DNA of 64,000 nucleotides, from contig JAXMNT010000011.1 in assembly GCA_034670305.1 (NCBI GenBank), forward strand, positions 32,001 to 96,000, in the 5' to 3' direction. Positions 5,387-47,438 of the stretch are shown piece by piece. Position numbers and translations under genes: made by a program. The stretch's first letter is position 1; every line of letters begins with the position of its first letter. The notes under the pieces were generated by a model. The model was not told the origin of the DNA, ran no database searches, and was given only the letters and a program-made list of their open reading frames with translations. The stretch is from Deltaproteobacteria bacterium (GTDB taxonomy: Bacteria; Myxococcota_A; Polyangia; Polyangiales; Houyiibacteriaceae).

Positions 5387-6334
5387 GTGGGCGCGCACGC
5401 GGCAGGAGCGAGGTCGGGATCGGGTTCGGCATCGGCATCGGCTTCGGCTTCGGGCTCGGCATCGGCATCGGCATCGGGATCGGCTTCGGGATCGGCTTCG
5501 GGATCGGCTTCGGCATCGGCTTCGGCATCGGGTTCGGCTTCGGGATCGGCTTCGGCATCGGGTTCGGCTTCGGCTTCGGCTTCGCCCCGAACAGTCGGGC
5601 ACGGGCACGGGCACGGGCACGGGCACGGACATGTACGCTGGCAGAGTCTCGTCGGGTCGCCGCACAGCCGCGACACTCTGGCGTGGCTCTGGCTGGCCGC
5701 GCTGTTCGCCCTCGCCTGTGGCGGTGACGACGCGGCCAACGCCTCTCCCGACCCCCGCTTCGAACCGGTCTCCGCGCCGGCCGACGACCCGGCCGCCGTC
5801 GTCGTGCGGGACTTGCCGCCGAGCGAGCTGCGCGCGCACGTGCTCGAACAGACGCGCACCCAGACGATCACGCCGACCTGGTTCGGCGAAGATCCGTGGC
5901 AGGCGTTCGCGGTGGTCGTCGGCGATCAGGACGTGGGCGAGGTTGTCGCGCGGGGCCGCACGTACGTGCGCAACGGCGGCGGGCTCGAGCTCGATGTGCG
6001 CATGGGCGCGGGCGACCGCGGCGCGTTCATGGGCGGGGTGCTCGCGACCGGGGTGGAGCGCGCGATGGTACAGGTGCGGGTGATGGATCCGGACACGCTC
6101 GGTGCGCGGTTCTCGATCCGGGTGCACGCGCTCGAAGGCGACGTGCGTCCGCGCGATGCGACGCCTGGGTACCTGCGGCGTGCGGTGCCGCGCGGGACCT
6201 ACCGCGCGTGGGTGGATGTGCCGCCGCGCGGCGGGCGGTACCTGGTGGAGGTGACGACGCTGGATCGCGGTGGCGAACAGGTGGCGCAGGCGTGGGCGAG
6301 TCCGATCGCGGTGGAGCGGCCGTGGCTGCAGTGA
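5387..6334 (+). CDS. Putative lipoprotein with an N-terminal in-frame (SA/SG)n and (GH)n repeat
   Basis: Lipobox-like LFALACGG near 5720; the nearest in-frame ATG/GTG/TTG upstream is GTG 5387, before the repeat. Confidence 0.6.
5414..5584 (-). repeat. Degenerate (GCCGAN)n hexamer array, minus orientation
   Basis: Tandem TCGGCA/TCGGCT/TCGGGA units on +. Confidence 0.95.
5597..5626 (-). repeat. (GTGCCC)5 arm on the minus strand
   Basis: GGGCAC x5 on +. Confidence 0.95.
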
Positions 6335-7338
6335 CGGGGGCGTCAGACGCAGACGCGGGTGCAGACGCAGGTGCAGCAGCAGGTGCAGACGCAGGTGCAG
6401 ACGCAGCAGCAGCAGGTGCAGACGCAGCAGCAGCGACAGCGACAGCGACAGAGTCAGCGACAGAGTCAGCGACAGAGTCAGCGACAGAGTCAGCGACAGA
6501 GTCAGCGACAGAGTCAGCGACAGAGTCAGCGACAGAGTCAGCGACAGCCGCCGATGCCGATGCCGATACCGATGCCGATGCCGATGCCGATGCCGAAGCC
6601 GATTCCGATGCCGATGCCGAAGCCGAGGCCGATGCCGACGCCGACGCCGGTGCCGTTGCCGTTGCCGACGCCGATGCTGACGCCGATGCCGGTGCCGACT
6701 CCGAGCTGCCGCTAGCGGTTCGGGTGCGGTGGACGGTGGGGTTCGTGTGGGTGGCTGCGGCGTTGGCGTTCTTGGTGGTGGGGCTTTGGACGCATGCGGA
6801 GGCGCGGGAGGCGTGGGCGGGGGAGCGGGGGCTGCTCGGGACCGAGGACTACGACGCGGAGGCGAGCGACCGGGCGTATCTGCGGAGCCGGCGGGCGCAC
6901 GAACGGGTGGGGTGGGCGGCGCCGCTTTTGGTGATCGGGGTGGTGATCGTGTTGGGGCTCGGCGGCGCGTCTGAGACGCCGCTTCGTGCGCCCGGCCGTG
7001 GGCGACTCGTGGGGGCGACGTTGGTCGACCTGGGGTGCGCCGTCGCGCTCACGTCGCTCGGGTGGCTCGACACCGGGGAGAGTGCGCTGGTGTTTGCCAT
7101 CGCGCGCGCCGGTCCGGTGGCGGGCGTCGCGGTGCTCGCGGCGGGCTACGGACAGGGCGCGTCGCTCGGCCTGCGGACGATGGGGCTGCGGTGCGCGGCG
7201 TCGCCGGTGCAAGCGGTGGTGGCGGCGGTGTGTTGGCCGCTCTCCGTGGTCGTGGTGGCTGCGCCGGTGTGGGCGGTGGCGGCGGCGCCTGCGTTGGCGT
7301 TGGTGCGGGCGCGGGTCGGGCGGTCTCTCCCGAGCTGA
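6331..7338 (+). CDS. Multi-pass membrane protein with a long acidic repeat-encoded N-terminus
   Basis: GTG overlaps the upstream TGA (GTGA); about 125 codons of ADAG/ATES/ADAD repeats, then several hydrophobic segments. Confidence 0.6.
6344..6700 (+). repeat. Compound array: (GCAGAC/GCAGGT)n, (GCGACAGAGTCA)8 at 6445-6540, then (GCCGAT)n
   Basis: Read directly; all units are multiples of 3 nt, mostly 6 or 12. Confidence 0.95.
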
Positions 7339-7339
7339 A

Positions 7340-7683
7340 CCGACGCCGAAGCCGATGCCGAAGCCGATGCCGATGCTGATGCCGAAGCCGAAGCCGAAGC
7401 CGATGCCGATGCCGATGCCGATGCCGACGCCGAAGCCGAAGCCGAAGCCGATGCCGAAGCCGATGCCGATGCCGATGCCGATGCCGATGCCGAAGCCGAC
7501 GCCGATGATGCCGACGCCGACGCCGATGCCGATGCCGAAGCCGACGCCGACGCCGACGCCGATGCCGAGGCCGACGCCGATGCCGAGGCCGATGCCGACG
7601 CCGATGATGCCGACGCCGACGCCGATGCCGAGGCCGGAGCCGAGGCCGACGCCGATGCCGAGGCCGGAGCCGAGGCCGACGCC
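7340..7683 (+). repeat. (GCCGAN)n hexamer array
   Basis: Tandem GCCGAT/GCCGAA/GCCGAC/GCCGAG beginning right after the stop at 7338. Confidence 0.95.
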
Positions 7684-7689
7684 GCCTCG

Positions 7690-7876
7690 GGTAGGGAGGT
7701 TGGGTTCCTTTTGCGACGGAACTTCCACCCACTCCTCACTCTTCTGAACTCTCCCGAAACGAACCGGGAGCCGGCGAGAACCGGCAACCACGCAGGAGCG
7801 CCCCGCCCGCGAGAACGCTCAGGGGGGCGTGCGCAGTCGCGCTGCCCAACTCGCCAGCGTGTCGCGCTGGGCGCAG
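7690..7876. ncRNA. Candidate structured element (multi-hairpin spacer between repeat arrays)
   Basis: Consecutive stems GTTCC/GGAAC, CTCCCG/CGGGAG, GCCGG/CCGGC, GAGCG/CGCTC and CCAGCG/CGCTGG; no family recognised. Confidence 0.3.
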
Positions 7877-7879
7877 TAG

Positions 7880-8077
7880 TCGCGGTCGCTGCCGCTGTTG
7901 CTGTCGCTGCCGCTGACGCTGACGCTGTCGCTGCTTCTGACTCTGCTTCTGACTCTGCTTCTGACTCTGCTTCTGACTCTGCTTCTGACTCTGCTTCTGA
8001 CTCTGCTTCTGACTCTGCCTCTGACTCTGCGAAACGAACCAAGGGCAAGGGCAGGGGCAAGGGCAGGGGCAAGGGGC
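7880..8077 (+). repeat. (GCTGNC)n, about 8 copies of TCTGACTCTGCT (7936-8030), then an (AAGGGC/AGGGGC)n arm (8040-8077)
   Basis: Read directly. Confidence 0.95.
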
Positions 8078-8100
8078 CTCTTGGAGTCGCTTGGCTCCTC

Positions 8101-10548
8101 CTAGAGGATCGGCACGGTGCCGGTGAGGGCTTGGGACAAGAAGCGGCGGGTGTCGGTGCGGCCGCCTTCGGTGCGGGTGGCGACGAAGTGTCCGTCGTCT
8201 CCGCTCTGCGGGTCGTAGGAGCGCAGGCCGAAGGTGTAGAAGAGGTCGCCTTGGGTGATGTTGCCGGTGAGGCCGGCGTCCGCTTGGCCGAGGCGCAGTT
8301 CGATCACCCGCGGCGCGACGTGCGGCAGTCCGGCCGCGGCGGCGAACGCGCGCTGGTTGGCTTCGGTCGTGTAGGTGTCGCCGGTGCCGAACGTCATCAT
8401 CACGTGCCGGAGCGTCACGTCTTCGGGCACTTCGCGTGCGAGCAGCCGCGCGTAGTTCACCGGATCGGCGACGTCGAAGTACATCTGGAAGAGCGCGAGC
8501 ATCGGGTGGAAGTCACCGGCCGGCAGGTTGCCGTCTCCGTCGGCGTCGAGCAGCGCGAAGGGCACGAGCGCCTTGATGTTGGTCGGCGAAGTCTTGTTCA
8601 GAAGCGACAGGGTGAGGTCCCCCGAGTTGCCGCTGAAGACAACCGCGGAGAGCCCACTCTCGAACGGGACCATCAGGTCCGCGTGGGTGGCGCCTTGCGA
8701 GTGCGCGTAGAGCGCGATGCGGCTCGGGTCGAACTGGATCGGCGCCGCGGTGGGCGAGTCGCCTGCGGCCAGGGCGAGCTCTTCGGCGAGCCGCACGAGC
8801 GCGAAGAGATCGCCGCTGCCCTGAAGCACGTTGTCGCGCGCGGCAGCCGGGTTGAGCACGTTGAAGAAGAGCTCGTCCGGTGGACCGTCTGAGTGCCGCC
8901 GGCTTCCGTGCTGCGGCATGTCGATGGCCAGGGTCGCGGCGCCAAGCGGGCTGCCGTCCACGTCCATGGTCGCTGCGTCGAGCGCGAGACCCGAACGCGC
9001 GGCGGTGGTGAACGCGCCGCCGGTGCCATGCGCGGCGATGACGAGCGGCCAGCCGGTCGTGGGTGCGTCGCCCTCCGGCAACGTGAGCGCGAAACACACG
9101 TCTTCGGTGCGCTGGATCGTCGGCACGCCGCCCGCCCATTCGATCGCGCCACCGTCCTCGGGCGTCGCGTAGGGGGCTTCGCCTGCTTGGAAGATCGGCA
9201 GGCTCACCCGGCCGTGGATCTCGACCACGCCGGGGGTCGCCGCGTCGGGGCACGCGTGCTGGGGCGTGCCGTCGTCGCACGGGGAGGTGACCCCGGCAGC
9301 GCACACCGTCATGTCGCTGAGGGTCGGCAGCGGGGCGTCGCGCACGGCCTGGCGCATGCCGGCCATGGGCCGGAGCGGTTCGGTGGTGAAGACCGCGGCG
9401 TTCAAGAGATCGTCGGCGCCGAGCATCTCGTCTTCGGCCAGGTACGAACGGAGGGGTGCGTAGGTGGCCCACGCGGCGGCGAGCACCGGGTCGCTCGGTT
9501 CGGTGTCGGCCATGACCGCGTCGAAGTCTTCGTCGCGCGCGAAGCTCGCCGCGTACTCGGGGTTCGGGATCATGTCGCGGGTCAACATCACCGCGTAGGT
9601 GGTGCCGGGGCGGAGCGGCGCGCCGTGCACGGTGCGGACCGCGAACCAGTCCTCACAGATGTACTTGGTGATCTGACCGAAGGTCGTCAGCCACCCGTAG
9701 AGCACGGACTCGCCGCGGTTGGGCGAGTCCGGATCGACATCGACGAAACGGATCGCGCCGGGCGCCGAGTCCCAGTCGTACGCGCCGCTGAATCGGAAGT
9801 ACGCGACCGGGTTCGTGCTGAACCCTCCCATGTCGTTCTCCGCCGCGCGCAGGTAACGGTCGATGAGATCCACGTCGAGCGCGACGTCGGGCGCCGCATG
9901 GTTGCGCAGGTCCACGTGTCCGTCGCGGGTGCGGATGTCGTTCGGGAAGGGCAGCCGGTAGAAGTCGTTGTCGGTGCCGTCGAAGCGGGGGACCTCGAAG
10001 TAGCTCCGCGCCGGTCCGTCGTCTTCGGTGCACGCGATGCCAGGCCAGAAGGGCGCGCTCGGCGGCGGCTCGGAACCGACCTCGCCGGTGACCGATTGGC
10101 AGAGGCCGCCGTTCATGAGTGGGTTGTGCACGCACGAGAGTCCGGCGAGGCAGTCGGCGATGGTGCCGCACTCGTCCATCAGGTCGCCTTCCCCCGACGC
10201 GCCGCAGCGCGCGTAGAAGCCTTCGAGCCGACAGACGAGACCGGCCACGCAGTCCGCGGCGGAGTCGCAGCTCGCGCCGTCGGCGCCGGGGCCTTCCGGG
10301 GCGCAGAGGCGGTCGGCCGCGCAGTAGAGCCCGTCCTGACAGTCGCCGGTCAGCTGACACATGCCGCCTTCGGCGGTCGTGCCCGCGGGCTGGCAGGTGC
10401 CTGTGCAGACGAGCTCGCCGCGGCACTGGCTCGAGACTTCGCAGCCTTCGCCCACGCCGCGAAAGTTCTCACTCGGTGGATCGCCGCGATCGAAGAAGTT
10501 GCATCCCGCACTCACACACAGAGCCGTCACCAACAAGCAAATCCGCAC
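8101..10548 (-). CDS. Large lipoprotein: Cys-rich N-terminal repeats plus lipase-like alpha/beta hydrolase
   Basis: Lipobox VSAGC, many short Cys-spaced repeats, LPFPND, AHGTGG, AIDMPQHG and nucleophile elbow AHSQGA. Confidence 0.8.
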   Translation of the reverse strand: MRICLLVTALCVSAGCNFFDRGDPPSENFRGVGEGCEVSSQCRGELVCTGTCQPAGTTAEGGMCQLTGDCQDGLYCAADRLCAPEGPGADGASCDSAADCVAGLVCRLEGFYARCGASGEGDLMDECGTIADCLAGLSCVHNPLMNGGLCQSVTGEVGSEPPPSAPFWPGIACTEDDGPARSYFEVPRFDGTDNDFYRLPFPNDIRTRDGHVDLRNHAAPDVALDVDLIDRYLRAAENDMGGFSTNPVAYFRFSGAYDWDSAPGAIRFVDVDPDSPNRGESVLYGWLTTFGQITKYICEDWFAVRTVHGAPLRPGTTYAVMLTRDMIPNPEYAASFARDEDFDAVMADTEPSDPVLAAAWATYAPLRSYLAEDEMLGADDLLNAAVFTTEPLRPMAGMRQAVRDAPLPTLSDMTVCAAGVTSPCDDGTPQHACPDAATPGVVEIHGRVSLPIFQAGEAPYATPEDGGAIEWAGGVPTIQRTEDVCFALTLPEGDAPTTGWPLVIAAHGTGGAFTTAARSGLALDAATMDVDGSPLGAATLAIDMPQHGSRRHSDGPPDELFFNVLNPAAARDNVLQGSGDLFALVRLAEELALAAGDSPTAAPIQFDPSRIALYAHSQGATHADLMVPFESGLSAVVFSGNSGDLTLSLLNKTSPTNIKALVPFALLDADGDGNLPAGDFHPMLALFQMYFDVADPVNYARLLAREVPEDVTLRHVMMTFGTGDTYTTEANQRAFAAAAGLPHVAPRVIELRLGQADAGLTGNITQGDLFYTFGLRSYDPQSGDDGHFVATRTEGGRTDTRRFLSQALTGTVPIL

Positions 10549-10625
10549 GCGAGACCTCCCAAGTATGGGTGGAGGGTAGCAGGCGGAAGCGGGTCTTGTC
10601 GGCCCGCCGGGAACTCACCCCACGT

Positions 10626-11645: not shown

Positions 11646-11715
11646 GGGCCAAGCCTACCAGACGGGGATCCTTTGCGCCTGATCGGGGACCAGCGGGCCG
11701 ACCAGCCCGCGAGGC

Positions 11716-12252: not shown

Positions 12253-12374
12253 GGCCGAACATAACCGATCGCGGCGGATTCTCAGTGAGCGGATGATCAG
12301 AGTCGGACAACCCGGCAGGATGATTGGGCTTTCCTCAGACTCTGCTATGTTGCGGGCCGTTCTCGGATTTGACC

Positions 12375-12401
12375 GGAAATAAGCAAAGCCTTCGGGGTGT
12401 T
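12375..12401 (+). promoter_or_regulatory. Putative ECF (SigR/SigH-type) autoregulatory promoter
   Basis: GGAAAT-N18-GTT ending 20 nt upstream of the ECF ATG; resembles GGAAT-N18-GTT. Confidence 0.5.
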
Positions 12402-16041: not shown

Positions 16042-17238
16042 ATGTCGACGTCGACCACGGTCCGCCGCTGGTTCGACGCGATGTGGCGACAGCTGGATCC
16101 AGAAGCGGCCACCCGGCAGGCGGTGGACCGGCTGTTCGAAGCGGGCACTCGGGTGCACCTGTTCGCGCTCGGCAAGGCCGCCCGAGGCATGGTGCGCGGG
16201 GCGCTCGACGCGCACGTCGCGGTGGTTGGGGGCGTCGTGTACGCGCCTGCGGGGCCCGACTTCCCGCCGGGCGGACTGGGGCTCCGGTGGTTCGTCGGAG
16301 AACACCCGTGGCCGGCCGCCGACGCCTCTGCGCAGGGGCGGGTCGCGTTGGACGTGGCCGGCGCGCTCGATGCGCACGACCACGCGTTGGTGCTCGTCTC
16401 CGGCGGAGGTTCGTCGCTCTTCGAAGTGTTGGCGCCGGGGGTCGACCGGGAGCGCTACCGCGCCTGGTTGCAGACCGCGATGCATCGAGGCGCCGACATC
16501 CAGTCGCTCAATCGGGCGCGCGGTGGGCTGTCTCTCGTCAAGGCGGGACGACTGGCGGCGGCGATCCACCCGGCGTCGATCACCACCCTGATCATCGACG
16601 ACGTACCGGGCGGCGCGTCGCACGAAGTCGCCTCCGGACCGACCATGGTGGGTCCCGGCGAGCCGGAAGACGTGGCTGCGACGTTTGAAGGTTTCCCGGA
16701 TCTGCTCCGCCTGTGGCAACCGCCGGCGGCGCTTGGCCAGGTCGTGATGCGGAGCGAGGTGCTGCTCGACAACGACTTCGCGGTCGCGTCGGTCGTCGCG
16801 GCCGCCCACGCGGAAGGCGTGCGCCTCTTGGTGGTGCCGTCCCTCTTCGGCGAAGCCCGGGATGTGGGGGCGCGCTTGGTGCGGGAAGCGCGCGCGGCGT
16901 GTCTGGCGACGGGGGCCGATGGGGTGGTCTGCGGCGGAGAGACGACGGTCACGGTGCGGGGCGACGGCCGGGGCGGGCGGAACCACGAGCTGGTGCTGGG
17001 CGGCGCTGGGTCGCTCTTGCCCGGAGAGTTTCTCGCCAGCGTGGGGACGGACGGGGTGGACGGCGCGAGTGCGGCAGCGGGCGCGTGGGCGCTCGGTCCG
17101 CTGGGAGATGGCGTCGCGGCTCGGGATGCGCTGGAACGGAACGACAGTGGGACGTACTTCGCGGAGCGTGGGGCGCAGTGGGTGACGGGGGCGAGCGGGA
17201 CGAACGTGGCGGACGTGACGGTGTATCTGCGGGGGTAG
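16042..17238 (+). CDS. Glycerate kinase class II (DUF4147/MOFRL)
   Basis: LGKAA, LVSGGGSSL, VASGPT, GGETTVTVRGDGRGGRNHEL, GTDGVDG and GTNVAD motifs. Confidence 0.9.
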   Translation: MSTSTTVRRWFDAMWRQLDPEAATRQAVDRLFEAGTRVHLFALGKAARGMVRGALDAHVAVVGGVVYAPAGPDFPPGGLGLRWFVGEHPWPAADASAQGRVALDVAGALDAHDHALVLVSGGGSSLFEVLAPGVDRERYRAWLQTAMHRGADIQSLNRARGGLSLVKAGRLAAAIHPASITTLIIDDVPGGASHEVASGPTMVGPGEPEDVAATFEGFPDLLRLWQPPAALGQVVMRSEVLLDNDFAVASVVAAAHAEGVRLLVVPSLFGEARDVGARLVREARAACLATGADGVVCGGETTVTVRGDGRGGRNHELVLGGAGSLLPGEFLASVGTDGVDGASAAAGAWALGPLGDGVAARDALERNDSGTYFAERGAQWVTGASGTNVADVTVYLRG

Positions 17239-17258
17239 TGGGCGCCGACTGAGGAAGA

Positions 17259-17563
17259 AGCCGAAGCCGATGCCGAAGCCGAAGCCGATGCCGATGCCGA
17301 TGCCGAAATCCGAAGCCGAATCCGAAGCCGAATCCGAAGCCGAAGCCGAATCCGAAGCCGAATCCGAATCCGAAGCCGAAGCCGAAGCCGAATCCGAATC
17401 CGAAGCCGAAGCCGAAGCCGAAGCCGAAGCCGAATCCGAAGCCGAAGCCGAAGCCGACGCCGAAGCCGAAGCCGAAGCCGAAGCCGACGCCGATGCCGAA
17501 TCCGATGCCGCCTCCGCTACCGCTTCCGCTACCGCTACCGCTTCCGCTACCGCGTCCGCTTCC
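17259..17563 (+). repeat. (GCCGAA/TCCGAA)n array followed by (TCCGCT/ACCGCT)n
   Basis: Fills the gap between convergent stops at 17238 and 17569. Confidence 0.95.
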
Positions 17564-17568
17564 GATTC

Positions 17569-18801
17569 TTACGAGAGCAGGAGCCAGGTTAGGGCGGCGG
17601 CGGTGGCGAGGGCGAGGATTGCGGCGGCGATGTAGATCGCGGTGGGCGGAGGGGGAGCGGGGGTGGGGTGGTCGGCGCGGGCGGAGGCGGGGTCGGTGGT
17701 GGCGTCGAGGGTGGTTCTGGTTTCGACTGCGGTGGGGGGGTCGGGGGCGACTTCGGTCTGCACGTCGGGGAGGCGGGTTCGGGTTTCGTCGGTGGGCCCG
17801 GCGGAGCGGGGCTGTTCTTGGCGCTCGGGGCGGTCGCCGAGTTGCATGGTGCCGCCGGGGGTCGCGGGTTTCGTCTCGTCGAAGACCAAGTCGTTCTCGG
17901 GGGTGGGGCGTGCGTGGGCCCGCACGAGTTTGGCGAGGATGCGGCGGGCGGTGGGCGGGGGCGTGACCGCGCCGAGTGCTTGACGCAGTTCGCGGGTGGA
18001 GGTGAAGCGCACGTCGGGATCCAGCTCGAGCAGGCAGTCGACGACGTGCGCGAGTTCCACCGGGACCGAGGGCGCGAGGTCGAGCAGGGCAGGGCGGCTG
18101 CCCTTCGCGATGTTCTCGAGCGTCTCGATGTCGTTGCGGCCATCGAAGGGGCGGCGACCGGCCAACGCTTCGAACAACGTCACGCCGAGCGAGAAGAGGT
18201 CGATGCCTGGGTGGACCCGGCCTTCGCGCGCGTACTCCGGTGCCATGTACGGCACCTTGCCTTTGACGCTGCCGGTGCGCGTCTTGTCCGACGCGATGCG
18301 CCGGGCCACGCCGAAATCGGCGACCTTCACCTCGCCCGCGTTGCTCAGCAGGATGTTCGAGGGAGAGATGTCCCGATGCACGATGCCTTCGTCGTGGGCA
18401 CGCTCGAGGCCGGACGCGATCGAGACCGCGATGTACGCCACGAGCCCGGTCGTCAGCTCTTCGCCTGTCCGCTTGAGGCCGCGGAGCAAGAGCCGCAGGT
18501 CGGTGCCTTCGACGAGCTCGAGGACCAGGTAGTAATTGCCCTCGTGTTCCCCGAAGTCGAGCACCTGGGCGATGTTGCCGTGGCGCAGCCGCGCCGCGAG
18601 TTGGGCTTCCTGTAGAAACAGTGCGGTGAGTTCCGCGTCGCTCGCGAGGCTCGGCAACATGCGTTTGAGACACACCCGCTGTTCGAAGCGCGCGGGGCCC
18701 ACCTTCTTCGCCAGGTAGGTCTCCGCCATGCCACCGGCGCCGAGACTGCCGAGGAGCTCGTAGGGTCCGATCTTCGAGGCGCCGATCTTCGAACCGGTCA
18801 T
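17569..18801 (-). CDS. Ser/Thr protein kinase with C-terminal TM
   Basis: [19 protein letters not shown] and APE; Pro/Thr linker and terminal hydrophobic helix; ATG overlaps the upstream stop. Confidence 0.92.
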
Positions 18802-22593: not shown

Positions 22594-23835
22594 GTGTCTG
22601 CCCATCTCCGTCTTCTCCCTGGATCCCTGATCGTGCTGCTCTGCGTGGGTGCATCCATCGGGGTCGCTCAGAACGAGGATGCGTCGCTCATGCTCGCGGT
22701 CGCGAGCGCGGGGGAACACGACGCGCGCGGGACCCGCATCGGATCGATGCGTCACGAGGAGGTTCGGCCGGGCCGACCACTGACGTTCGACACCACCTTG
22801 AACCCCAGCGAGTGCTTGCTCTTGGTCGCACAGGCCGGGCAAGGAATTCGGGATCTGGACCTGACCATTCGCCGACTGGGCGCCAGCGGGACCCCGCTCT
22901 CCCGCGTCACCGCACGCGGCGGGTTGGGCCAGGCGCGGCACTGCGCGGGTGCGCGGATCGAGCGCCTGCGTTTCCTGGTCGCGAGTGTGGCGGGTCGCGG
23001 ACGGGTGGTGGCCGCCATCTACCGCGTGGCCGCGCCTCCCCCCTCGCAGGCGATCGTGATCGACTCGACCAGCCCACTCGAACGACTCAGCGCGCTCGTC
23101 GAACGCGACGGCGCCCGCTACGCGCCGATCACGCCGCCGGCACTGGAGCCTGCGCTCGAGGCCGGTACGTTCATCGAACGCACGGTGCCACTCGCGCCCG
23201 GTCGCTGCTACCGAGTGTTCGCTGCCGGGTCCGCTGGGGTGACGCACCTCTCGATTTCGATCCGCGCGCCACGAAGCGATGCAGAGCTTCAGAACGACGG
23301 GGCGGAATTGGCGACGCCTACGCTCGGCGTGCTCCGGCCCCTGTGCCCCGCCACGGCCGGCGAACACCATCTTCGTTTTCAGGTCGAAGCCGGCTCGGGT
23401 CGTTTCGCGTGGCGCGTGTACGCCCAAGCGCAGCGTGCGGCCGCCGTGGCCCGGCTCCAGACCTATGCCGTGGGTGGCGATGGTTCGGGCTACGTGCCCA
23501 GTCGCCTTCGATCCCGGCACCGCGTGGTTGGGCGGGGCGGTCTCGGTGTGATTCCGCTCGCCGAGGGCGCACTGCGCCGCAGCGGCACGGTCGAGGTGCC
23601 CGTCGAGGTGCGCGCGGGGCGTTGTTATGTGGCCATCGCCGCGGGCGTGCCGTCGGTCCGCAGCCTCTCGCTCTCGGTGCGCGACACCTTCGGGCAGGAG
23701 CGCGCGACCGGAGCCGCCGCGCCGCAGCCCCACGCCCGATTCTGTCCGTCGATCGCCGGGCAGTGGACCGTCCGGGTGAAAGCCGAAGTCGGCTACGGCC
23801 GGTATGGCATGCAGGTCTTCTCGCAGCCTCGGTGA
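22594..23835 (+). CDS. Secreted protein with three repeated Cys-containing beta-sandwich-like modules
   Basis: Signal peptide; three related blocks (SECLLLVA, GRCYRVFA, GRCYVAIA), each followed by a second Cys. Confidence 0.7.
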   Translation: MSAHLRLLPGSLIVLLCVGASIGVAQNEDASLMLAVASAGEHDARGTRIGSMRHEEVRPGRPLTFDTTLNPSECLLLVAQAGQGIRDLDLTIRRLGASGTPLSRVTARGGLGQARHCAGARIERLRFLVASVAGRGRVVAAIYRVAAPPPSQAIVIDSTSPLERLSALVERDGARYAPITPPALEPALEAGTFIERTVPLAPGRCYRVFAAGSAGVTHLSISIRAPRSDAELQNDGAELATPTLGVLRPLCPATAGEHHLRFQVEAGSGRFAWRVYAQAQRAAAVARLQTYAVGGDGSGYVPSRLRSRHRVVGRGGLGVIPLAEGALRRSGTVEVPVEVRAGRCYVAIAAGVPSVRSLSLSVRDTFGQERATGAAAPQPHARFCPSIAGQWTVRVKAEVGYGRYGMQVFSQPR

Positions 23836-23838
23836 GCC

Positions 23839-24075
23839 GTGCCCGTGCCCGTGCCCGTGCCCGTGCCCGTGCCCGTGCCCGTGCGCGTGCCCGTGCCCTG
23901 CCCGCGGTCGAAGCCGACGCCGACGCCGAAGCCGACGCCGACGCCGACGCCGACGCCGAAGCCGATGCCGACGCCGAAGCCGACGCCGAAGCCGATGCCG
24001 ATGCCGAATCCGACGCCGAAGCCAAAGCCGAAGCCGAAGGCGACGCCGACGCCGAAGCCGACGCCGAAGCCGACG
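23839..24075 (+). repeat. About ten GTGCCC units followed by (GCCGAN)n
   Basis: Read directly; starts just after the stop at 23835. Confidence 0.95.
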
Positions 24076-24191
24076 CACACAGATGCCGAGGTCGTTTTTA
24101 GATCCTTGTGCGGGCTCGACCGTCGGAGGGGGTTCGGGCAGGTTGGGTTCCACGTGGCGCGTTGCGCCCGGACGAGGACGCGAGGACGACG

Positions 24192-25824: not shown

Positions 25825-26023
25825 GTGGAACTTCGTTTGGATGTGGTGGGTCCTGCGCTCGCGATTTGCCGGTTGGCGGCCGACGCCAGGCTTCCGGAGT
25901 GGGCGCTGTCGGGGAGGTTCTTCTCGATCACCCGAACCGAGAACGAGCTGTCGGTGGTCGCGCCCGAGGACGAAGTGCCAACCGCGGCCGAAGGCCGAAG
26001 CCGATGCCGAAGCCGAAGCCGAA
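25825..26023 (+). pseudogene. Truncated ACT-domain protein (N-terminal half only)
   Basis: LAICRL..LPEWAL..FFSITRTENELSVVAPE is the typical N-half; similarity stops at a short GCCGAA/GCCGAT array, and the frame then runs antisense into lexA. Confidence 0.7.
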
Positions 26024-31582: not shown

Positions 31583-31611
31583 GGGCGGACGCCGGAGGGC
31601 ATGGATGTCCC

Positions 31612-31941
31612 GCATCCTCAGCGCCCCGCCAGATCCCATTCGACCGCGGCTCGCAATCTGCGAGGGTCGCATCCACCGATGCGGGGGCTTGTTTGCTGGA
31701 TAGGGCGGGCGGGTTCAGGCGTGGTACGGGGGCGCGCCCGGTTGAGAAGGAGCGGCACGGATGCGGGGCTCGTTGCAATGCAGCATGCTGCTGCACCGCT
31801 TTGAACTGCCGTGTTCGAACGAGTCGCCGGAGGCCGTGAGGACTGCGCGGCTCCTACGTCCGAGCGGGACCGTACGCAGCCGGCTCCGGGCCGTGAAGCG
31901 CAGCGCCCGGCTGGCCCGGCGCAGCTGGAAAGTGGCTGCGC
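31612..31941 (+). repeat. Left arm of a long imperfect inverted repeat flanking the transposase
   Basis: Aligns with the reverse complement of 32740-33123; identical blocks at 31681-31708 and 31776-31806. Confidence 0.9.
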
Positions 31942-31971: not shown

Positions 31972-32685
31972 TCACGAAGCTGGCTTAGACCTGTGTCTCG
32001 GGCCTGGTCGCTCGTCGGGGTGGATCAGCCCACGTTTGCGCCACCCGACGCGCAACAGCCACGTGTGTGCGCGTGGCATCGGCGGGCCGCAGTCGCGTGG
32101 GGGCTCGGGGGCGGACGACCATCCATCGAAGTGCGGCGCCGTGGAACAGGGGTCGACCCAGCCGGGTCGAAACGTGCGGCGGGAACCCGCGTGCTTGCGC
32201 TTGTTGTTGAGCACGTAACGAAGCGCGTGGCGGACCTGCGTGGGCGTGGAAAGGACCTCGGCGTGGTAGCGGTCCGGGAACAGCTTGCCCGACCGTCCGA
32301 GGTACCTGTTCACTCGCTTCGCGAGCCGGATCAGCAACCCCTGCATGCCACGCGAAAGCGCCTCCGTGCTCTTCGCTTCTACGATGAGGTGGACGTGGTT
32401 CGTCTGGATCGAGAAGTGAACGATGCGCATGCCGTTGCGCTCGGCCGCCTGCTCGAAGATCGAGAACAGCAACCGGGTGAGACGACGCCCGCGAAGACTT
32501 GGGACGTCCGAAGCCACCTTGATCGTGACGTGGACGGGGTTGCGGTTGGCAACCTTGACCCGCGGCCGATGCGACACGCCCGCGCGTTCTCCCTTGGGCT
32601 TGCGACCGGCGCCCGCACGGCGACCTCCCCACGTGCCGGGAAGCGAAAGGTCGAGCTGTTTCGGTTTGCGAGGGCGGCGCGCCAT
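31972..32685 (-). mobile_element. RAYT-like (REP-associated) HUH/Y1 tyrosine transposase
   Basis: PVHVT, HFSIQTNHVHLIVE (HUH), GKLFPDRYH and LRYVLNN (candidate catalytic Tyr); no adjacent tnpB. Confidence 0.88.
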
Positions 32686-32697
32686 CTTGATTGAGCA

Positions 32698-32725
32698 ATA
32701 GTAGCACAATCCATGTCCAGTTCAA
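32698..32725 (-). promoter_or_regulatory. Putative promoter of the transposase
   Basis: TTGAAC-N16-TACTAT ending 12 nt before the ATG, in an AT-rich patch. Confidence 0.45.
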
Positions 32726-32739: not shown

Positions 32740-33123
32740 GCGCAGCCACTTGTCGGGGGCGTTGGGCTCGACCGCGCGCCGCGCTTGGTGCCGCGAGCCG
32801 GCAGCCTCTGCCCCCGCCCGGGCGTAGGAGCCCCGCAGCGGTCAACCGTTCCGGCGACCGTTCCGAACACGGCAGTGCTTTCTGAGGGGGGTTCCCCCTC
32901 CGGCCCTCGGCCACCTCCCCACCTGGTTCAAAGCGGTGCAGCAGCATGCTGCATTGGCCAAGGAGCCCCGTCTGCGCGCCGCCAAGCAGCCCGCTCCTCG
33001 AGCCCACATCGCCCGCCGGAACCCGGCCGCCCTATCCAGCAAACAAGCCCCCGCCTCCGTGGACCCGGCGCTTGCAGATTGCGATCCGCGGTCGAGTGGG
33101 ACAGGCGGGGCGCTCGAGGATGC
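32740..33123 (-). repeat. Right arm of the long inverted repeat, with an extra segment of about 50 bp
   Basis: Identical blocks at 32926-32956 and 33027-33054; extra segment about 32877-32925. Confidence 0.9.
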
Positions 33124-33330
33124 TGGGCACGCCTGGGTGGATGGGGTTTCGGGTCCGCGAACCGAAGGGCATTGCCAAGGGAAGCGGCCAAGGGGTTCTG
33201 TGGCGAGCTGCTCGGTTGGACCTTCAGGGGCCGGCGTACCGGGGCCGAGGAGTCTTGCGCCACTGCTAGACTGCCTCGTGCCTGTCTCACCCCACCATAC
33301 GCCTCAGGGGGTCTGGGTGCGGTGTCCTCG

Positions 33331-37775: not shown

Positions 37776-37776
37776 C

Positions 37777-40781: not shown

Positions 40782-40815
40782 GCGCGCGCGGGACGGCGGA
40801 CCGAAGCGGGCGCTG

Positions 40816-41080
40816 CCTGCTGATTCTGTAGCTGTGGCTGCTCCTGATTCTGTGGCTGACGCTGCCGCTGATTCTGTGGCTGACCCTGCTGCTGATTCTG
40901 TTGCTGATTCTGTGGCTCACCCTGTTGCTGATTCTGTGGCTGATTCTGTGGCTGACTCTGAGACAGCGTCCGAATCCGAATCCGAAGCCGAAGCCGACGC
41001 CGACGCCGAAGCCGAAGCCGAAGCCGAAGCCGACGCCGAAGCCGAATCCGACGCCGAAGCCGACCGCCGAAGCCGACGCC
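40816..41080 (+). repeat. Degenerate (GCTGATTCTGTG)n array followed by (GCCGAA/GCCGAC)n
   Basis: Lies between convergent stops at 40781 and 41160. Confidence 0.93.
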
Positions 41081-41159
41081 GATCGCCGACCCCCGACCCC
41101 ACTCATCCTCTCCTTCGGATTCGGATTTGGCCGCTTCCGCTCTACCTCCCGCTCCCCGT

Positions 41160-43163: not shown

Positions 43164-43268
43164 GGGTGGTCGAGAACGGGCGTGCCATGGCAGCGCCTGC
43201 GCTCCAAGAAAAGGGGGCGGGAGTTTGAACGCACGACGGTGGAACGGCGGGCTGGCGGGTGTTCTTCC

Positions 43269-43532
43269 CGTGCCCCCGTGCCCGTGCCCGTGCCCGTGCC
43301 CGTGCCCGATTCTCCGAGGCCGAAGCCGAAGCCGATGCCGATGCCGAAGCCGATGCCGAAGCCGATGCCGATGCCGATGCCGAAGCCGAAGCCGAAGCCG
43401 AAATCCGAATCCGAATCCGAATCCGAAGCCGAAATCCGAAATCCGAATCCGAAGCCGACATCCGAATCCGAAGCCGACCGCCCCGACCGCTCAACCCAAG
43501 GGCAAGGGCAGGGGCAAGGGCAGGGGCAAGGG
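43269..43532 (+). repeat. Complete tripartite array (GTGCCC)6-(GCCGAN/ATCCGA)n-(GGGCAA/GGGGCA)n
   Basis: Arms at 43269-43307 and 43498-43532 are near reverse complements. Confidence 0.93.
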
Positions 43533-43557
43533 GACACTCGGGCCTTTGGCCCTCCTG

Positions 43558-45750
43558 TCAGCGCACGGTTAGAGAGAACTGTTCGCGGACGCCTCGGCGG
43601 TTGCCGGGGTAGCGCTGGGCGCGGATGAGGGGTTCGACGCAGCTGCGGATGTTCTGCGGCATGTTCAGGCTCGCGATGTTGCCTTCGTCGTCGAGCGCGA
43701 GCACGAGGCGGGCGGTGCGGACTTCGGCTTCGGCGAGGCAGGCGTGGATCTGCGCGCGGATGGGGGCGAGGACCCGTTCGATCATCGGGAGGGTGGCGCG
43801 CTCAGGGCGGTTGTCGCCCGCGACCTGGTCGCCGGTCGTCTCGCCTTCGGTCTCGCCTTCGCCTTCGCCTTCCGCCCCCGCCTCCGCGGCGGCTTCGGCT
43901 TCGGCACGCGCAACTTCGATCGCGGTGAGGGTCACTTGGACGCGGTCGCGCACCGCCCTGGGGGCGAGCTCATCGGTCCGCACCGCGCGCAGAAGCGCTT
44001 CGGCGTCTTCGTCGCCCAGCGCGACGAGCACGTCGCCCGCGGCGCCGATGGCCTGGACCATCGCGTCGCTTTGCGCTTCGGCGTGGTAGAGGCGGACGAA
44101 GTCTCGGAGCGGTTCGGTCGCCGCGGTCCCCTCCAACGCGCCGAGTGCGTCGATCACCAGCTTGAGATCCTCTTCGCTGGTCTGGGGGTCGCGCAGATGG
44201 GCGACGAGGTGCGGGACGGAGGCGGTGGCCCCCATCGAGACCGCGGCGCGTGTCAGCGGTCCGAGGGGACCGGCGGTGGTGCCCGTCAGGTAGCGGGTGT
44301 AGCGGCCGAGCGCGTCGACGACGTGCTGTTCACCGGTGGTCCGAGCGGCGAGCGAGGTGCACGCTTCGTTGCGGACGGCCGGCGGCGCGCTGCGGTCTTC
44401 GCACAGGGCGATGAGGTGTCCCGTGACGTCGTCGTCCTGGATGGCGCGCAGCATGTGGACCGCGAGAATGCGGGCCGGCACGAGACGCGAGTCCGTGCTC
44501 TGGGCCGCCGCGAGCAGCTGGTCGTGCAAGGTGTGCACTTCGCCCTCGGCGGCGCCGTTCGGTTCGAAGTCGCCGCCGCGAATGGTGACGACGAGGGGCT
44601 GGATGTCGGTCGAGGCGTGCCAGTGTCGGCGGCCGTCGACCGCGCTGACGAACCCGAAGTTGCCTTCGGCGTCCGCGACGATCAGGCCGCCGGGCTGCGC
44701 GCTCGCACCCACGATGTCGGCGTCGTGTTCGTACACCCACCGGACGTCGTCCTCGGTCGGGACCAGGCCAAAGATCAGTTTGTAGAAGGTGCCGTAGAGC
44801 ACGTCGCCCGCGAGGGAGACCTCCTCGCCCGATCCCGCCGGACGCCACGAGTAGCGGATGCGGTGCACAGCGCTCTCGGGTGTGGGCGGGGGCCGGTACG
44901 GGTCGACCACGAAGGTCGGGTTGCCGGGAATGTCCCGCAACTGCGGCTCGAAGTACGCGGCGCTCGAGGTGCTTCCACCCGCGATGCTGCTGGTCAGCCG
45001 GAACACGCCGCGCTGCGCGAAGTACACGTCGGCGCCTTCGCGGAAGGCGCGCCCCACGGCGCTGTCGGTGATGCGGATGCGGGCGAGTTCGTCGCCGCTG
45101 GCCGCGTCGAGCACGCTGACGTTCTGAGTGGCCCAAGGCACGAAGACGAGTCCCCCGACGACCGTCGGCGCGCCGAGCGCGAACTCGACTTCTTTCGTCC
45201 ACGCGATGCGGCCGCCGCGCGCGACGACGAGCTTGGAGCGGGCGCTGACGCCGCCGCCGGTGGAGAGTGCGAATGCCACGAGGTCGCCTTCGCCATCGGC
45301 GCCGACGAGGTGCAATCCAGCATCTCCGGTGGTGAACTGGGTGTCGCCGGAGCGGGTGCTGCGGCCCACGATGCCGGCCGACTCATGGGTGAGCACGGTG
45401 CCGCCCGCGAGGAGGGGCGCCGCGACGATCGAGCCCTGCAGGGTCTTGCGCCAGCGGACGCTGCCACCGTTCAGGTCGACGGCGTACAGGGTGTGCGGGG
45501 ACGCGGTGACGCCTACAGCAAGCGGTTCGTCCTGGCGGGCGGGCGCTGCATGCACGCGGGCGAGCACCGCGTCGATGTCGGTCGATCGGTTGTCGGGGAA
45601 GGTGGGCCGGAACGCAGAACCCGAACCGCCGCCACAGGCGCTGGCGATCATGGCCACCGCGCACAGTGCTGCGGTTCCCACAGACGGCAACGTGGTCCAG
45701 AGGTGGGCGGGGGAATCGTTCATGGTCTGGGTGTTCTGTGCGTGCGTCAT
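43558..45750 (-). CDS. PQQ-like beta-propeller lipoprotein with C-terminal HEAT-like repeats
   Basis: IASAC lipobox; LYAVDLNGGSVRW and VLDAASGDE blades; helical C-terminal half. Confidence 0.8.
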   Translation of the reverse strand: MTHAQNTQTMNDSPAHLWTTLPSVGTAALCAVAMIASACGGGSGSAFRPTFPDNRSTDIDAVLARVHAAPARQDEPLAVGVTASPHTLYAVDLNGGSVRWRKTLQGSIVAAPLLAGGTVLTHESAGIVGRSTRSGDTQFTTGDAGLHLVGADGEGDLVAFALSTGGGVSARSKLVVARGGRIAWTKEVEFALGAPTVVGGLVFVPWATQNVSVLDAASGDELARIRITDSAVGRAFREGADVYFAQRGVFRLTSSIAGGSTSSAAYFEPQLRDIPGNPTFVVDPYRPPPTPESAVHRIRYSWRPAGSGEEVSLAGDVLYGTFYKLIFGLVPTEDDVRWVYEHDADIVGASAQPGGLIVADAEGNFGFVSAVDGRRHWHASTDIQPLVVTIRGGDFEPNGAAEGEVHTLHDQLLAAAQSTDSRLVPARILAVHMLRAIQDDDVTGHLIALCEDRSAPPAVRNEACTSLAARTTGEQHVVDALGRYTRYLTGTTAGPLGPLTRAAVSMGATASVPHLVAHLRDPQTSEEDLKLVIDALGALEGTAATEPLRDFVRLYHAEAQSDAMVQAIGAAGDVLVALGDEDAEALLRAVRTDELAPRAVRDRVQVTLTAIEVARAEAEAAAEAGAEGEGEGETEGETTGDQVAGDNRPERATLPMIERVLAPIRAQIHACLAEAEVRTARLVLALDDEGNIASLNMPQNIRSCVEPLIRAQRYPGNRRGVREQFSLTVR

Positions 45751-45751
45751 G

Positions 45752-46540
45752 TCAGCCCCCCGTGATCCGGCCGGCGGCGGCGCGTGCTTCGTTTTGGATC
45801 GCGCCGGCCGGCAAGGCTTCCGCGAGGCTCTCGAGGTAGGTGCGCACCTCGGGGGTGGCCAGCTCTTCCAGTTTGCCGAGGACCCGCAGTTTGACCCGGG
45901 CCGCGATGTCCGTGCGCGCGAGGATCTCGTCGAGTCCAGGTGTGATCGCATCCAGCGGCTTGCGGCCGAGGTAGGCCAACAATCGGTCTGCGCCAGCGGC
46001 GTCGGCGAGCTGGCCGATCGCAGGGGAGGCTTCGTTCAAACCTCGGTCGAACGCGAGGAACAGGTCGTCGAGCTGAGCAGCGGTTCCGACGGTGCCGAGT
46101 GCGATGGCAGCCGTCGCCCGCACTTGGGGATCGCCATCGGACAGCAGCGTGACGAGGCTCGCTGCCGCACCACGGGGCCGGCACGATCCGATCGCTTCCG
46201 TTGCGGCGACGCGGACTTCGACACGACGGTGGTTCGTCAGCTCGAAGAGCACGGGGCCCGCCTCTGGGCGTCCGAGCACGCCGAGCGTCTGGATCGCCAT
46301 GTCCAGCAACTCCGGGGGCAGCCCGCGACGGATCCGGGCGCTCAACGGCGCCACCGCACGCGCGGTGCCGTTGGTCCCGAGCGCTTCGATGCCGAGCTGG
46401 ACGGTGTCCGAGTCGGACGCGTCCAACATCTCCACCGCTTCGTTCAGCCGCACTTGCGCATCGGCCGTGCCAGCACTCAAAAGCCCCAGAAACGCGCCCA
46501 GCGCGACGACAACCGTCCACCCTCCAAGGCGCGCGTTCAT
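45752..46540 (-). CDS. Secreted HEAT-repeat protein
   Basis: Signal peptide ending ADA; VRVAATEAIG and VRATAAIALG repeats. Confidence 0.82.
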   Translation of the reverse strand: MNARLGGWTVVVALGAFLGLLSAGTADAQVRLNEAVEMLDASDSDTVQLGIEALGTNGTARAVAPLSARIRRGLPPELLDMAIQTLGVLGRPEAGPVLFELTNHRRVEVRVAATEAIGSCRPRGAAASLVTLLSDGDPQVRATAAIALGTVGTAAQLDDLFLAFDRGLNEASPAIGQLADAAGADRLLAYLGRKPLDAITPGLDEILARTDIAARVKLRVLGKLEELATPEVRTYLESLAEALPAGAIQNEARAAAGRITGG

Positions 46541-46673
46541 TCCCCCACTCGATCCCATGGAACTCTCCGTTCAAAGCGCGACGACGCGCTCAGAGGCCGG
46601 ACTTATCGCGTGCGGCGCTCGGTTTCAATGCCAGTGGTCGAAACGGCCCGCGCCGGGTAGCGTCCCCCCTCCC

Positions 46674-47438
46674 GTGCTCACGACCGCAGATCCCACCTCG
46701 CTCCCAGAACGTGCGCCCGCTTCCGCTTCGGACTCGCCTTCGGCCTCGGCGTCGGATTCGGCTTCGGCGTCGGCTTCGGCTTCGGCTTCGGCTTCGGCGT
46801 CGGCGTCGGCTTCGGCTTCGGCGTCGGATTCGGCTTCGGCGTCGGCGTCGGCGTCGGCTTCGGCTTCGGCTTCGGCGTCGGCGTCGGATTCGGCTTCGGC
46901 TTCGGCTTCGGATTCGGCGTCGGATTCGGCGTCGGCGTCGCCCTCGGCTGCCTCCAAACGCCAACCGGCCCTCCTCGCCCTCGCCATCCTCCTCGTCTCC
47001 ACCTCCCCGGTCCCCACCTTGTCCCAGACCGCCGACGGCGAGGTGCAGGCGGCCCTGGAGGCAGCCCGCGCCGAGCCGATGGAGCTGTCCCGGGTGGTCC
47101 GGGCCCACGCAGACGCCGTCGAGCGGCTGCTCGCGGAGTCTCCCCCGTCGATCGCCGCGGTACGGGCGTCGGCCTACCTCGAAGCGCCGAGCCGGCACCT
47201 CGCGCGGTTGGCGGAAGTCGCGGCTTCGGACGATCCCGAACGGGCACCGGTCGCCGCGTTGGCCGCGTGGCGCATCGCCCGCAACCTCACCGCGGAAGCG
47301 CTGAGCGCGGAGGAGCTGTCGCTTCCCGATGCCGCCCCCTTCGATGCGCTCGCCCAAGACGAACTCGCCCGCCCGGACATCCGCAGGCTCGCCGCCCTGG
47401 TCACGGCCCAAATCGCCTCACTGCGTTCCCCGGGCTGA
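46674..47438 (+). CDS. Hypothetical secreted helical protein with an in-frame (SA)n repeat before its signal peptide
   Basis: [17 protein letters not shown] signal-like segment right after the array; in-frame starts (GTG 46674, ATG 46557) lie upstream of the array. Confidence 0.5.
46718..46946 (-). repeat. (GCCGAN)n array, minus orientation
   Basis: TCGGCT/TCGGCG/TCGGAT units on +. Confidence 0.95.

Follow-up and report, generated by a model that had tools for sequence, protein, structure and literature searches.

We analysed a 64,000-nt window (positions 32001-96000 of contig JAXMNT010000011.1) of a metagenome-derived Deltaproteobacteria bacterium genome (7.93 Mb, 105 contigs, ~69% G+C) in which arrays of tandem hexamers lie between the genes. 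The arrays are probably the repeat ends of cassettes that resemble intervening sequences (IVSs) and are built around a gene for a four-helix-bundle protein of ~105 amino acids (aa; PF05635/TIGR02436), together with far more numerous gene-less derivatives. PF05635/TIGR02436 is the '23S rRNA intervening-sequence protein' family, and cassettes of this type were first encountered in the IVSs of ribosomal RNA. Short arms made of hexamers have been copied about the genome, the gene family is linked to arrays here and in other genera, and the elements follow rules of position and orientation relative to genes. A plain-microsatellite reading of the arrays of this genome does not hold. A limited literature search found no description of such a link between gene and repeats.

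The four-helix-bundle gene family and its tracts

A search of the genome with the Pfam profile PF05635 (23S_rRNA_IVP) gave 47 matches, 39 of them above the cut-off, which fell into four sequence subfamilies, S1-S4. Intact proteins of ~103-104 aa from three subfamilies scored above the cut-off of the NCBIfam model TIGR02436 'four helix bundle protein' (E 4e-16 to 6e-11) and matched the solved Xanthomonas protein PDB 2GSC (E 9.5e-9). A first-pass annotation of the window, made from the letters alone, had guessed that a four-helix-bundle gene might accompany the arrays, and a hexamer module was indeed found within 400 nt of 44 of the 47 matches, although these are not 44 independent events since the cassette copies duplicate a few ancestors. 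Two of its other candidates, a nuclease of the histidine-hydrophobic residue-histidine (HUH) type and a reverse transcriptase, did not fare as well: 8 of the 11 genes for Y1 (HUH) transposases had no array within 1.5 kb and none was bracketed by arms, while none of the three reverse transcriptase (RVT_1) genes lay within 5 kb of a cassette (nearest 5.2 kb).

The type of tract and its offset from a motif in the open reading frame (ORF) were specific to each subfamily. S1 had CCCTTG x6 upstream and AAGGGC x6 downstream, in inverted orientation, in 3 of 4 copies. S2 had CCGCTT-type tracts on both sides, the downstream tract beginning between +229 and +237 in 6 of 9 copies. The upstream tract of S3 was of CAG/GCGGCA type and its downstream CGGCTT tract began between +220 and +222 in 8 of 14 copies, at the foot of a cassette hairpin. 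In S4 an upstream AAGCCG tract ended between -342 and -369 in 10 of 13 copies, and the same tract was found downstream in 3. The number of units in cassette tracts ranged from 2-3 up to 59, and the flanks beyond the tracts were unique DNA. S3 copies at different loci had a common proximal pattern of units, CTTCGG alternating with CCTCGG, and some of them had only 2-3 end units before unique DNA began. With their fixed offsets, variable unit number, common proximal pattern and unique flanks, the tracts thus behave as expandable ends of the cassettes.

The same arrangement could have arisen in the opposite direction, with tracts that arise alone by slippage acting as landing pads into which cassettes insert, or between which they are copied by homologous exchange; we consider this unlikely. 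A split target would leave one type of tract, in one orientation, on either side of the cassette, and S2 and S4 do look like this, but the S3 tracts are unlike on their two sides and several S4 copies are one-sided. Tracts of 100-350 nt would give enough homology for exchange and two S3 cassettes stand in tandem with one compound tract between them, yet the S3 ends of 2-3 units look like a seed and not like a split array, and the alternating proximal pattern recurs from one S3 locus to another. This genome has more than 10 solo tracts for every cassette, but elsewhere in the phylum the words adjoining the gene are short (4-10 units) and inverted, in genomes that are not rich in arrays.

Abundance of the arrays and two kinds of repeat

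Tandem Repeats Finder (TRF) returned 1,375 period-6 rows for the whole genome and our own period-6 detector 1,639 arrays; 188 arrays were detected in the first Mb and none in a mononucleotide shuffle of the same Mb. When TRF rows and detector output were merged there were 1,289 array loci covering 184,977 bases, or 2.3% of the genome. Gene calls were made with our own crude codon-bias caller (5,645 genes, 85% coding), by which 1,079 of the loci were intergenic, 206 were within predicted genes and 4 were partial, and 773 of 5,540 spacers held an array. Sorting into modules gave 914 GCCGAN tracts, 241 CCGCTT-type tracts and 584 GGGCAN arms, the last including 466 of GGGCAA type (C-type) and 106 of GGGCAC type.

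Tracts and arms differed in kind. Tract length was free (median 83 nt, range 24-357 nt), and with such variable lengths and unconserved flanks the GCCGAN tracts look slippage-driven. Head-to-tail short units whose number varied from locus to locus were found in the GCCGAN, CCGCTT and CAG/CTG tracts and not in the 34/39-nt arms. The length of the GGGCAA-type arms was fixed, at 34 nt in 160 and 39 nt in 133 of the 466, and of the 394 arms whose flanks were complete, 109 shared one identical 34-mer and 47 one identical 39-mer. Slippage does not yield such identity at fixed length, and the GGGCAN arms are therefore copied units and not slippage products.

Ordinary compound microsatellites, produced by independent slippage and point mutation in a GC-rich genome and only incidentally close to four-helix-bundle genes, are a very unlikely explanation of the whole. 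The range of tract lengths, the unconserved flanks, the 206 loci inside predicted genes and the higher-order periods of 12, 18 and 30 nt present in the arrays, which are typical of satellite evolution, would all fit it, but the identical arms do not, nor do the order of modules at junctions (95 of 123 in one order where 25% is expected), the 74 inward against 8 outward arm pairs, the fixed tract offsets around 44 of 47 PF05635 genes or the same association in a complete genome of another genus and in 13 of 29 genomes of the phylum. The genome retains MutS and MutL, both with open frames, and hence shows no obvious defect in repair, and loss of mismatch repair was rejected as the cause of the arrays. 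The first-pass annotation was thus right that these are not unrelated microsatellites, on the grounds of the fixed-length identical arms, the inward bias of the pairs and the link to a gene family. Its suggestion of an enzymatically extended element was not supported, no sign of such extension having been seen, and there is no single element with a three-part grammar.

We also considered tracts as translated tails reached by stop-codon read-through and rejected this, the phase of tracts relative to the upstream gene frame being near uniform (GCCGAN 64/43/64; NTGCCC arms 80/82/61; TCGGCN 71/105/68, p = 0.006, a weak bias).

The S1 element

The two dominant arm types, T1 (34-mer) and T2 (39-mer), form the ends, in inverted orientation, of an element that is scattered through the genome and codes for a decayed four-helix-bundle protein (PF05635/TIGR02436). 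At ≤3 substitutions they numbered 198 and 134 copies respectively, and the reverse complement of T2 was followed by T1 in 37 pairs with a spacing of 47-607 nt. A BLAST search of the genome with positions 51840-52270 of the window covered the ends ~130-380 times and the middle 16-60 times. S1 copies form a family of ~380-750 bp with conserved inverted ends and a variable, decayed interior; the ends CT(A/C)GCAG...CTGCTAG plus arms were present in the 7 copies that we inspected by eye. In the longest copies, four-helix-bundle frames ('...ANIAEG...') could be read on the gene strand, broken by small nested palindromic inserts. The copy in the window (51878-52252) is too decayed to score against the profile and is linked to the family through its ends and the homology of its interior. 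In its predicted fold the arms were paired and the outer hairpin was intact (z -8.0, 0 of 100 shuffles as good).

The palindromic inserts nested in decayed four-helix-bundle genes were seen in the window copy and in S1 copies on contigs C9, C32, C1 and C19. Inserts with ATATTG...CAATAT at their ends make up one type, and GGGGGCACAGCCCCC is present in another; the inserts seem to lie at ATAT sites and to be separate repeat families.

Order of modules, arm pairs and predicted folds

A fixed grammar, (GTGCCC)n-(GCCGAN)n-(GGGCAA)n, had been proposed for the arrays, and it survives as a pairwise preference but not as a triple, which occurred in full only 5 times genome-wide. Among 123 junctions of an arm with a GCCGAN tract, 95 had an NTGCCC arm (c-arm) followed by GCCGAN and 18 had GCCGAN followed by a GGGCAN arm (g-arm); in 10 GCCGAN was followed by an NTGCCC arm, and in none did a GGGCAN arm precede GCCGAN. 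No conserved linker was found at the 95 junctions, where arm and tract were separated by a variable 0-30 nt. Reading of the sequence confirmed the claim that GTGCCC stands ahead of GCCGAN at 23837 (+), 43267 (+) and 5414-5628 (-). A GGGCAA arm follows a GCCGAN tract at 43497 as claimed, but the second example, at 8040, fails: the arm there comes after a CTG-type 12-mer array (7931-8030), and no GCCGAN tract is closer than the one at 7340-7684, 355 nt upstream. The right arm at 43497-43532 and the arm at 8040-8075 have the same sequence.

When pairs of arms within 1 kb were counted, 74 faced inward (c...g) and 8 outward (g...c); the pair 51885-52224 of the window S1 copy, which encloses the decayed gene, is among the inward ones. 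The three-module unit at 43267-43532 had been suggested to fold as a stem with the GCCGAN tract as its loop. Its arms are complementary at 5 of 6 positions per unit and are paired in the minimum-energy fold of both strands, but the fold of the plus strand (43255-43545) was no better than those of shuffles (z +1.7, against -2.2 for the minus strand).

In the compound array at 17257-17568, GCCGAA and the adjoining CCGCTT units are complementary at 5 of 6 positions, so that the array could fold back on itself; junctions of GCCGAN followed by CCGCTT numbered 32 genome-wide. A separate motif, CCTCTCCTTCGGA, which is pyrimidine-rich (anti-Shine-Dalgarno-like) with UUCG inside, had 102 occurrences in the genome (≤1 mismatch), and for 69 of these an array lay no more than 40 nt away. 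Its place was between a GGGCAN arm and a (TTCGGA)n tract, and two occurrences were in S2/S3 cassette leaders.

Position and orientation relative to genes

Elements and tracts are concentrated immediately downstream of genes, in many cases at the base of a terminator-like hairpin of the host gene, and avoid promoters. The observation in the first-pass annotation that many arrays start near stop codons holds genome-wide, with a median distance of 28 nt to the gene 3' end by our crude gene calls; 54% of 1,115 such distances were ≤35 nt, as against 8% of 641 distances to a 5' end (median 116 nt). Convergent spacers held 291 of 759 intergenic GCCGAN modules and were thereby enriched over their background of 856 of 4,837 spacers. 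Cassettes lay behind a co-directional host gene in 27 of 36 cases and faced a convergent gene downstream in 24 of 36. In the sense of the mRNA, CCCNTG was the reading of 223 arms ≤80 nt behind a stop codon and GGGCAN that of 39. A perfect hairpin of ≥7 bp abutted the 5' side of 47 of 375 non-T1 CCCNTG arms and the other side of 3; all 47 hairpin sequences differ, so the hairpins belong to the host genes. T1 arms had their own conserved hairpin in 66 of 80. A hairpin at every array border was rejected as a rule, the 81 of 1,115 borders facing a 3' end that had one (19 in a shifted control) amounting to an enrichment.

These biases would also be expected if the repeats were selected cis-elements at gene 3' ends, acting as putative terminators or insulators between convergent genes or as arrays of binding sites for the ring-shaped four-helix-bundle protein, which we think quite unlikely. 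Sequences with at least four runs of G3+ spaced 1-7 nt conform to the G-quadruplex pattern, and the (GGGCAN)5.5-6 arms do so on sequence grounds, (GGGCAN)4 or longer being sufficient. Under the cis-element idea, the arms would bring such a motif, of the G3N3 form, onto the template strand immediately downstream of a terminator-like hairpin. The orientation of arms behind stop codons, the hairpins at their 5' side and the preference for convergent spacers agree with a selected function, but specificity of insertion could equally give the orientation bias, and a perfect adjacent hairpin was present at only 12.5% of non-T1 arms. Canonical U-tract terminators between 40500 and 53000 were not above chance (4 found against 5.1 expected), a further point in favor of such a role, but the lengths of the tracts are unconstrained and the repeats are patchy among relatives, the arm pattern being abundant in 3 and GCCGAN in 2 of 31 genomes. 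As to binding sites, the ~5.5-6 units of an arm may be compared with the homopentamer reported for the solved member of the S23p family in PMC4990558.

Other genomes

Among the 31 genomes, the GGGCAN-arm pattern was abundant in the source genome (G000, 320 matches), G004 (226) and G017 (237), and the GCCGAN pattern in G000 (4,024) and G012 (286); PF05635 was present in 22. G012 is a complete, one-contig genome of another genus, and in it period-6 arrays stood beside the gene at 12 of 12 four-helix-bundle loci, six of which had been chosen for a nearby GCCGAN match and six blind. The G012 proteins are 37-50% identical to S2/S4 yet carry other words, and simple co-inheritance of protein lineage and word across genera was rejected on this account. 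At arm loci of G004 and G017, arms of the 33-nt class were found in 10 of 10, and inward pairs around 100-450 nt of non-coding DNA in 9 of 10; a simple motif search of the 10 loci found no four-helix-bundle motifs within the pairs.

A survey of the phylum used one PF05635 locus, the best, from each of 29 other genomes and looked for arrays with a period of 6-8 or 12 nt. A short-period array was present within 1.5 kb in 19 of 29 and within 102 nt of the gene in 13 of 29, and ~16 of 33 merged arrays fell within 102 nt of the gene, a zone that makes up ~7% of the flanking length. Inverted heptamer arms bounded the gene at locus L041, (GTCAGAG)4 ... gene ... (CTCTGAC)4, and at locus L046, (GTAGNCT)n ... 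gene ... (AGCCTAC)n. In the genomes of these two loci, G096 and G101, the arm word had 114 and 66 matches, with 0 for the reversed control in both cases, against 1 and 4 PF05635 matches respectively; gene-less copies of the arm far outnumber genes in these genomes too. A genome-contig scan for relatives returned only 5 loci, from Myxococcales/Myxococcota metagenome-assembled genomes, at 38-40% identity.

Two further arrangements were noted. One arm pair of G004 (contig C88, 35350-36450) holds ~6 tandem units of ~74 nt, each ending in a short GGGCAN arm. In G012, G002 and G013 (for example loci L013-L015), two diverged four-helix-bundle genes lie in convergent orientation, ~80-100 nt apart, between one pair of repeat arrays.

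Assembly support

Independent short-read contigs from four runs of one study covered the unique DNA and ended at the arrays 40958-41067, 43300-43537 and 46712-46952. No contig of the four runs bridged an array, so the copy numbers of long tracts may be wrong, and 171 of 584 arms lay within 800 nt of a contig end. That the arrays are an assembly artefact of a metagenome-derived genome is nevertheless extremely improbable: the contigs break exactly at the array borders, as real repeats cause in short-read assemblies, with flanks that match with 0-4 differences, and the same architecture is present in the complete one-contig genome G012 and in dozens of other assemblies.

A model of the cassettes

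In the model that we favor, the cassettes are copied between spacers, as are GGGCAN/NTGCCC arms of ~5.5-6 units, which travel as parts of elements. Facing each other as inverted pairs, these arms could close a long stem around a payload. The payload may be a four-helix-bundle gene, either whole or reduced to decayed remnants, or non-coding DNA of another kind, and in rare cases it is a GCCGAN tract. Tracts of the GCCGAN, CCGCTT and CAG/CTG types would have fixed starting points at the termini of the cassette subfamilies and from there grow or shrink by slippage or unequal exchange, and exchange between flanking direct tracts, or decay, would leave solo tracts and gene-less pairs. We infer that the 511 solo GCCGAN chains may descend from cassette ends and that the arm stem, by analogy with rRNA IVSs, would be cut from read-through transcripts by RNase III; the means by which copies spread likewise belongs to the conjectural part of the model.

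Several findings weigh against the model. Neither a target-site duplication nor a transposition enzyme was identified for S1, the duplications having been judged by eye in 7 copies and not systematically. Most GCCGAN tracts are solitary, in GCCGAN-only chains (n = 511), and their flanks are unconserved (≤0.2 bits at each of 40 outer positions per side in 506 chains); cassette leader fragments show no excess genome-wide by coverage. With neither flank conservation nor such an excess, the descent of solo tracts from cassettes leans on shared unit types and context alone. Subfamilies S2-S4 end in direct or unlike tracts and not in inverted arms, so an IVS-like closing stem is evident only for S1 and the arm pairs, and only 10 of the 74 inward pairs, 43267-43532 among them, are mostly filled by a GCCGAN/CCGCTT tract. 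G002 and G008, with 16 PF05635 matches each, had 0 GGGCAN-arm matches and 0 and 9 GCCGAN matches, in a search limited to these two patterns. The shared ancestry of the cassette copies and the crude gene calls, both described above, count on the same side.

The four-helix-bundle proteins could be putative ring-shaped binders of their own repeat word, with about one unit per subunit, each protein and word forming a self-propagating pair that seeds, copies and expands arrays behind host genes. This is a tentative idea and on balance an unlikely one. If true, it would explain both the ~5.5-6 units of the arms and the different word of each protein subfamily, and the pair would be analogous to RAYT/REPIN (repetitive extragenic palindromic (REP)-associated tyrosine transposases and the paired REP sequences they accompany), without a known nuclease. 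The arrays would then have run away in this genome, filling about one spacer in seven, and the same system might lie behind the intervening sequences of rRNA, as well as much of the surplus, so far unexplained, of tandem repeats of 6-8 nt in bacterial genomes.

Relation to known systems

The closest likeness in design is to the IVSs of 23S rRNA in Coxiella burnetii, Leptospira and others, which hold a small S23p/PF05635 ORF between complementary ends that form a long stem. A published account describes an ORF-bearing IVS bounded by inverted repeats with a 28-bp stem that is cut by RNase III, terms the IVS selfish, cites an older idea of IVS mobility and terms both the function of the S23p protein and the origin of rRNA IVSs unclear (PMC4990558). 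The S1 element is similar in its 34/39-nt inverted arms and strong predicted fold. Unlike IVSs, which are inserted in a 23S rRNA helix (9, 25 or 45), the cassettes stand between protein-coding genes, and no RNA family of Rfam (hence no rRNA) was found in the window; being outside rRNA, they are not members of the rRNA IVS class, though IVS-like in design. Their ends consist of tandem hexamers where those of IVSs are unique sequence; copies run to hundreds per genome, most of them without the gene, and in three subfamilies direct tracts that can expand stand where inverted arms would be.

Long simple-sequence repeats of prokaryotes include the heptamer short tandemly repeated repetitive (STRR) arrays of heterocystous cyanobacteria. 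These are alike in their intergenic head-to-tail units of 6-7 nt, many copies, variable unit number and higher-order periods; the arrays here differ in that a subset is of fixed length, has the same sequence at many loci and forms inverted pairs. This subset is also tied to one gene family. REP and REPIN sequences are short extragenic repeats with RAYT (Y1 HUH) transposases. As in those systems, short extragenic repeats stand in their hundreds downstream of genes and are often paired in inverted orientation; they also flank a small low-copy gene, and pairs without the gene are many. The flanked gene here, however, encodes a four-helix bundle without known catalytic motifs and not a Y1 transposase, the repeats are tandem words and not single palindromes, and REP/RAYT identity was rejected on the Y1 transposase survey given above. 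The 11 Y1_Tnp genes of the genome have long inverted flanks of their own. One of them is in the window at 31972-32709 (-), IS200-like (PF01797, E 1.4e-8), between long inverted repeats at 31606-31941 and 32740-33129 that include a perfect 31-mer.

The S1 family resembles miniature inverted-repeat transposable elements (MITEs) in its size, conserved inverted ends, variable decayed interior and small nested palindromic inserts, and differs from them in that neither target-site duplication nor transposase was identified. Avd of diversity-generating retroelements belongs to the same fold family (PF05635). A diversity-generating retroelement was rejected, 0 of 47 PF05635 matches being within 5 kb of the 3 RVT_1 matches, in an analysis that did not extend to template repeats.

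The function of the S23p, or '23S rRNA intervening-sequence', protein and the origin of the IVS have been open for about thirty years. This genome is a natural amplifier of the system, with four protein subfamilies, each with its own word at fixed offsets, hundreds of gene-less copies and ~1,300 arrays, and the defined partners of protein and word make the function open to direct experiments on binding, processing and mobility. The cassettes are also a concrete source of the dense short tandem repeats that break assemblies.

Repeat features of the window

TRF returned a period-6 (or 12) array at each site where the first-pass annotation had listed one. The spans are given in Table 1 with the modules that they contain.

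Table 1. Repeat modules and related features of the window, in window coordinates.
Feature	Positions	Strand	TRF span	Remarks
GCCGAN tract, ~27 units	5414..5584	-	5414-5584	plus strand TCGGCN; 32 nt past stop of inositol monophosphatase-family gene 4582-5382
GTGCCC arm	5596..5628	-	5596-5628	plus strand GGGCAC x5.5; ahead of GCCGAN tract on minus strand
CAG-type hexamer and 12-mer arrays	6344..6547	+	6344-6698	CAGACG/CAGGTG, then CAGCGACAGAGT x9.8; begins 10 nt past stop at 6334
GCCGAT/GCCGAN tract x24.8	6550..6698	+	6344-6698	
GCCGAN tract x58.5	7340..7684	+	7340-7684	begins 2 nt past stop of ORF 6736-7338
CTG-type arrays	7879..8030	+	7879-8075	GTCGCT-type, then CTGCTTCTGACT x8.3
GGGCAA/GGGCAG arm x6	8040..8077	+	7879-8075	24 nt from stop of minus-strand gene 8101-10515; CCCTTG in the sense of that gene
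GCCGAN tract x42	17257..17510	+	17257-17568	18 nt past stop at 17238
CCGCTT/CCGCTA tract x10	17508..17568	+	17257-17568	abuts stop of minus-strand kinase gene 17569-18801
GTGCCC arm x11.5	23837..23904	+	23837-24076	begins 2 nt past stop at 23835
GCCGAN tract x28	23909..24076	+	23837-24076	higher-order period 30 nt
GCCGAA tract x6, short	25987..26023	+	25987-26023	convergent genes on either side
CTG-type 12/24/36-mer array (GCTGATTCTGTG)	40811..40960	+	40811-41082	
GCCGAN tract x18.7	40970..41082	+	40811-41082	
GTGCCC arm	43267..43308	+	43267-43532	left arm of three-module unit
GCCGAN/ATCCGA tract x26.7	43314..43477	+	43267-43532	'loop' of three-module unit
GGGCAA/GGGCAG arm x6	43497..43532	+	43267-43532	right arm of three-module unit; 26 nt from stop of minus-strand gene 43558-45750
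GCCGAN tract x38.5	46719..46949	-	46719-46949	plus strand GCTTCG
Decayed S1 element copy	51878..52252	-		terminal CTCGCAG...CTGCTAG, inverted arms; interior akin to four-helix-bundle gene copies elsewhere
39-nt arm, CCCTTG-type	51885..51923	+	51885-51922	reverse complement of arm type T2
~83-nt palindromic insert in S1 copy	~52001-52083			
34-nt arm, type T1	52191..52224	+	52192-52224	sequence present unchanged 109 times; followed by S1's own 11-bp hairpin, 52225-52250

Two ORFs next to repeats were also noted. ORF 6736-7338 (+) encodes a hydrophobic product of 200 aa without a Pfam match and has arrays on both sides (6344-6698 and 7340-7684), an arrangement that resembles a cassette with other cargo. 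The stop codon of ORF 52249-52842 (-; 197 aa) lies in the terminal CTAG of the S1 element, so that the end of the element supplies or overlaps the stop of the host ORF.

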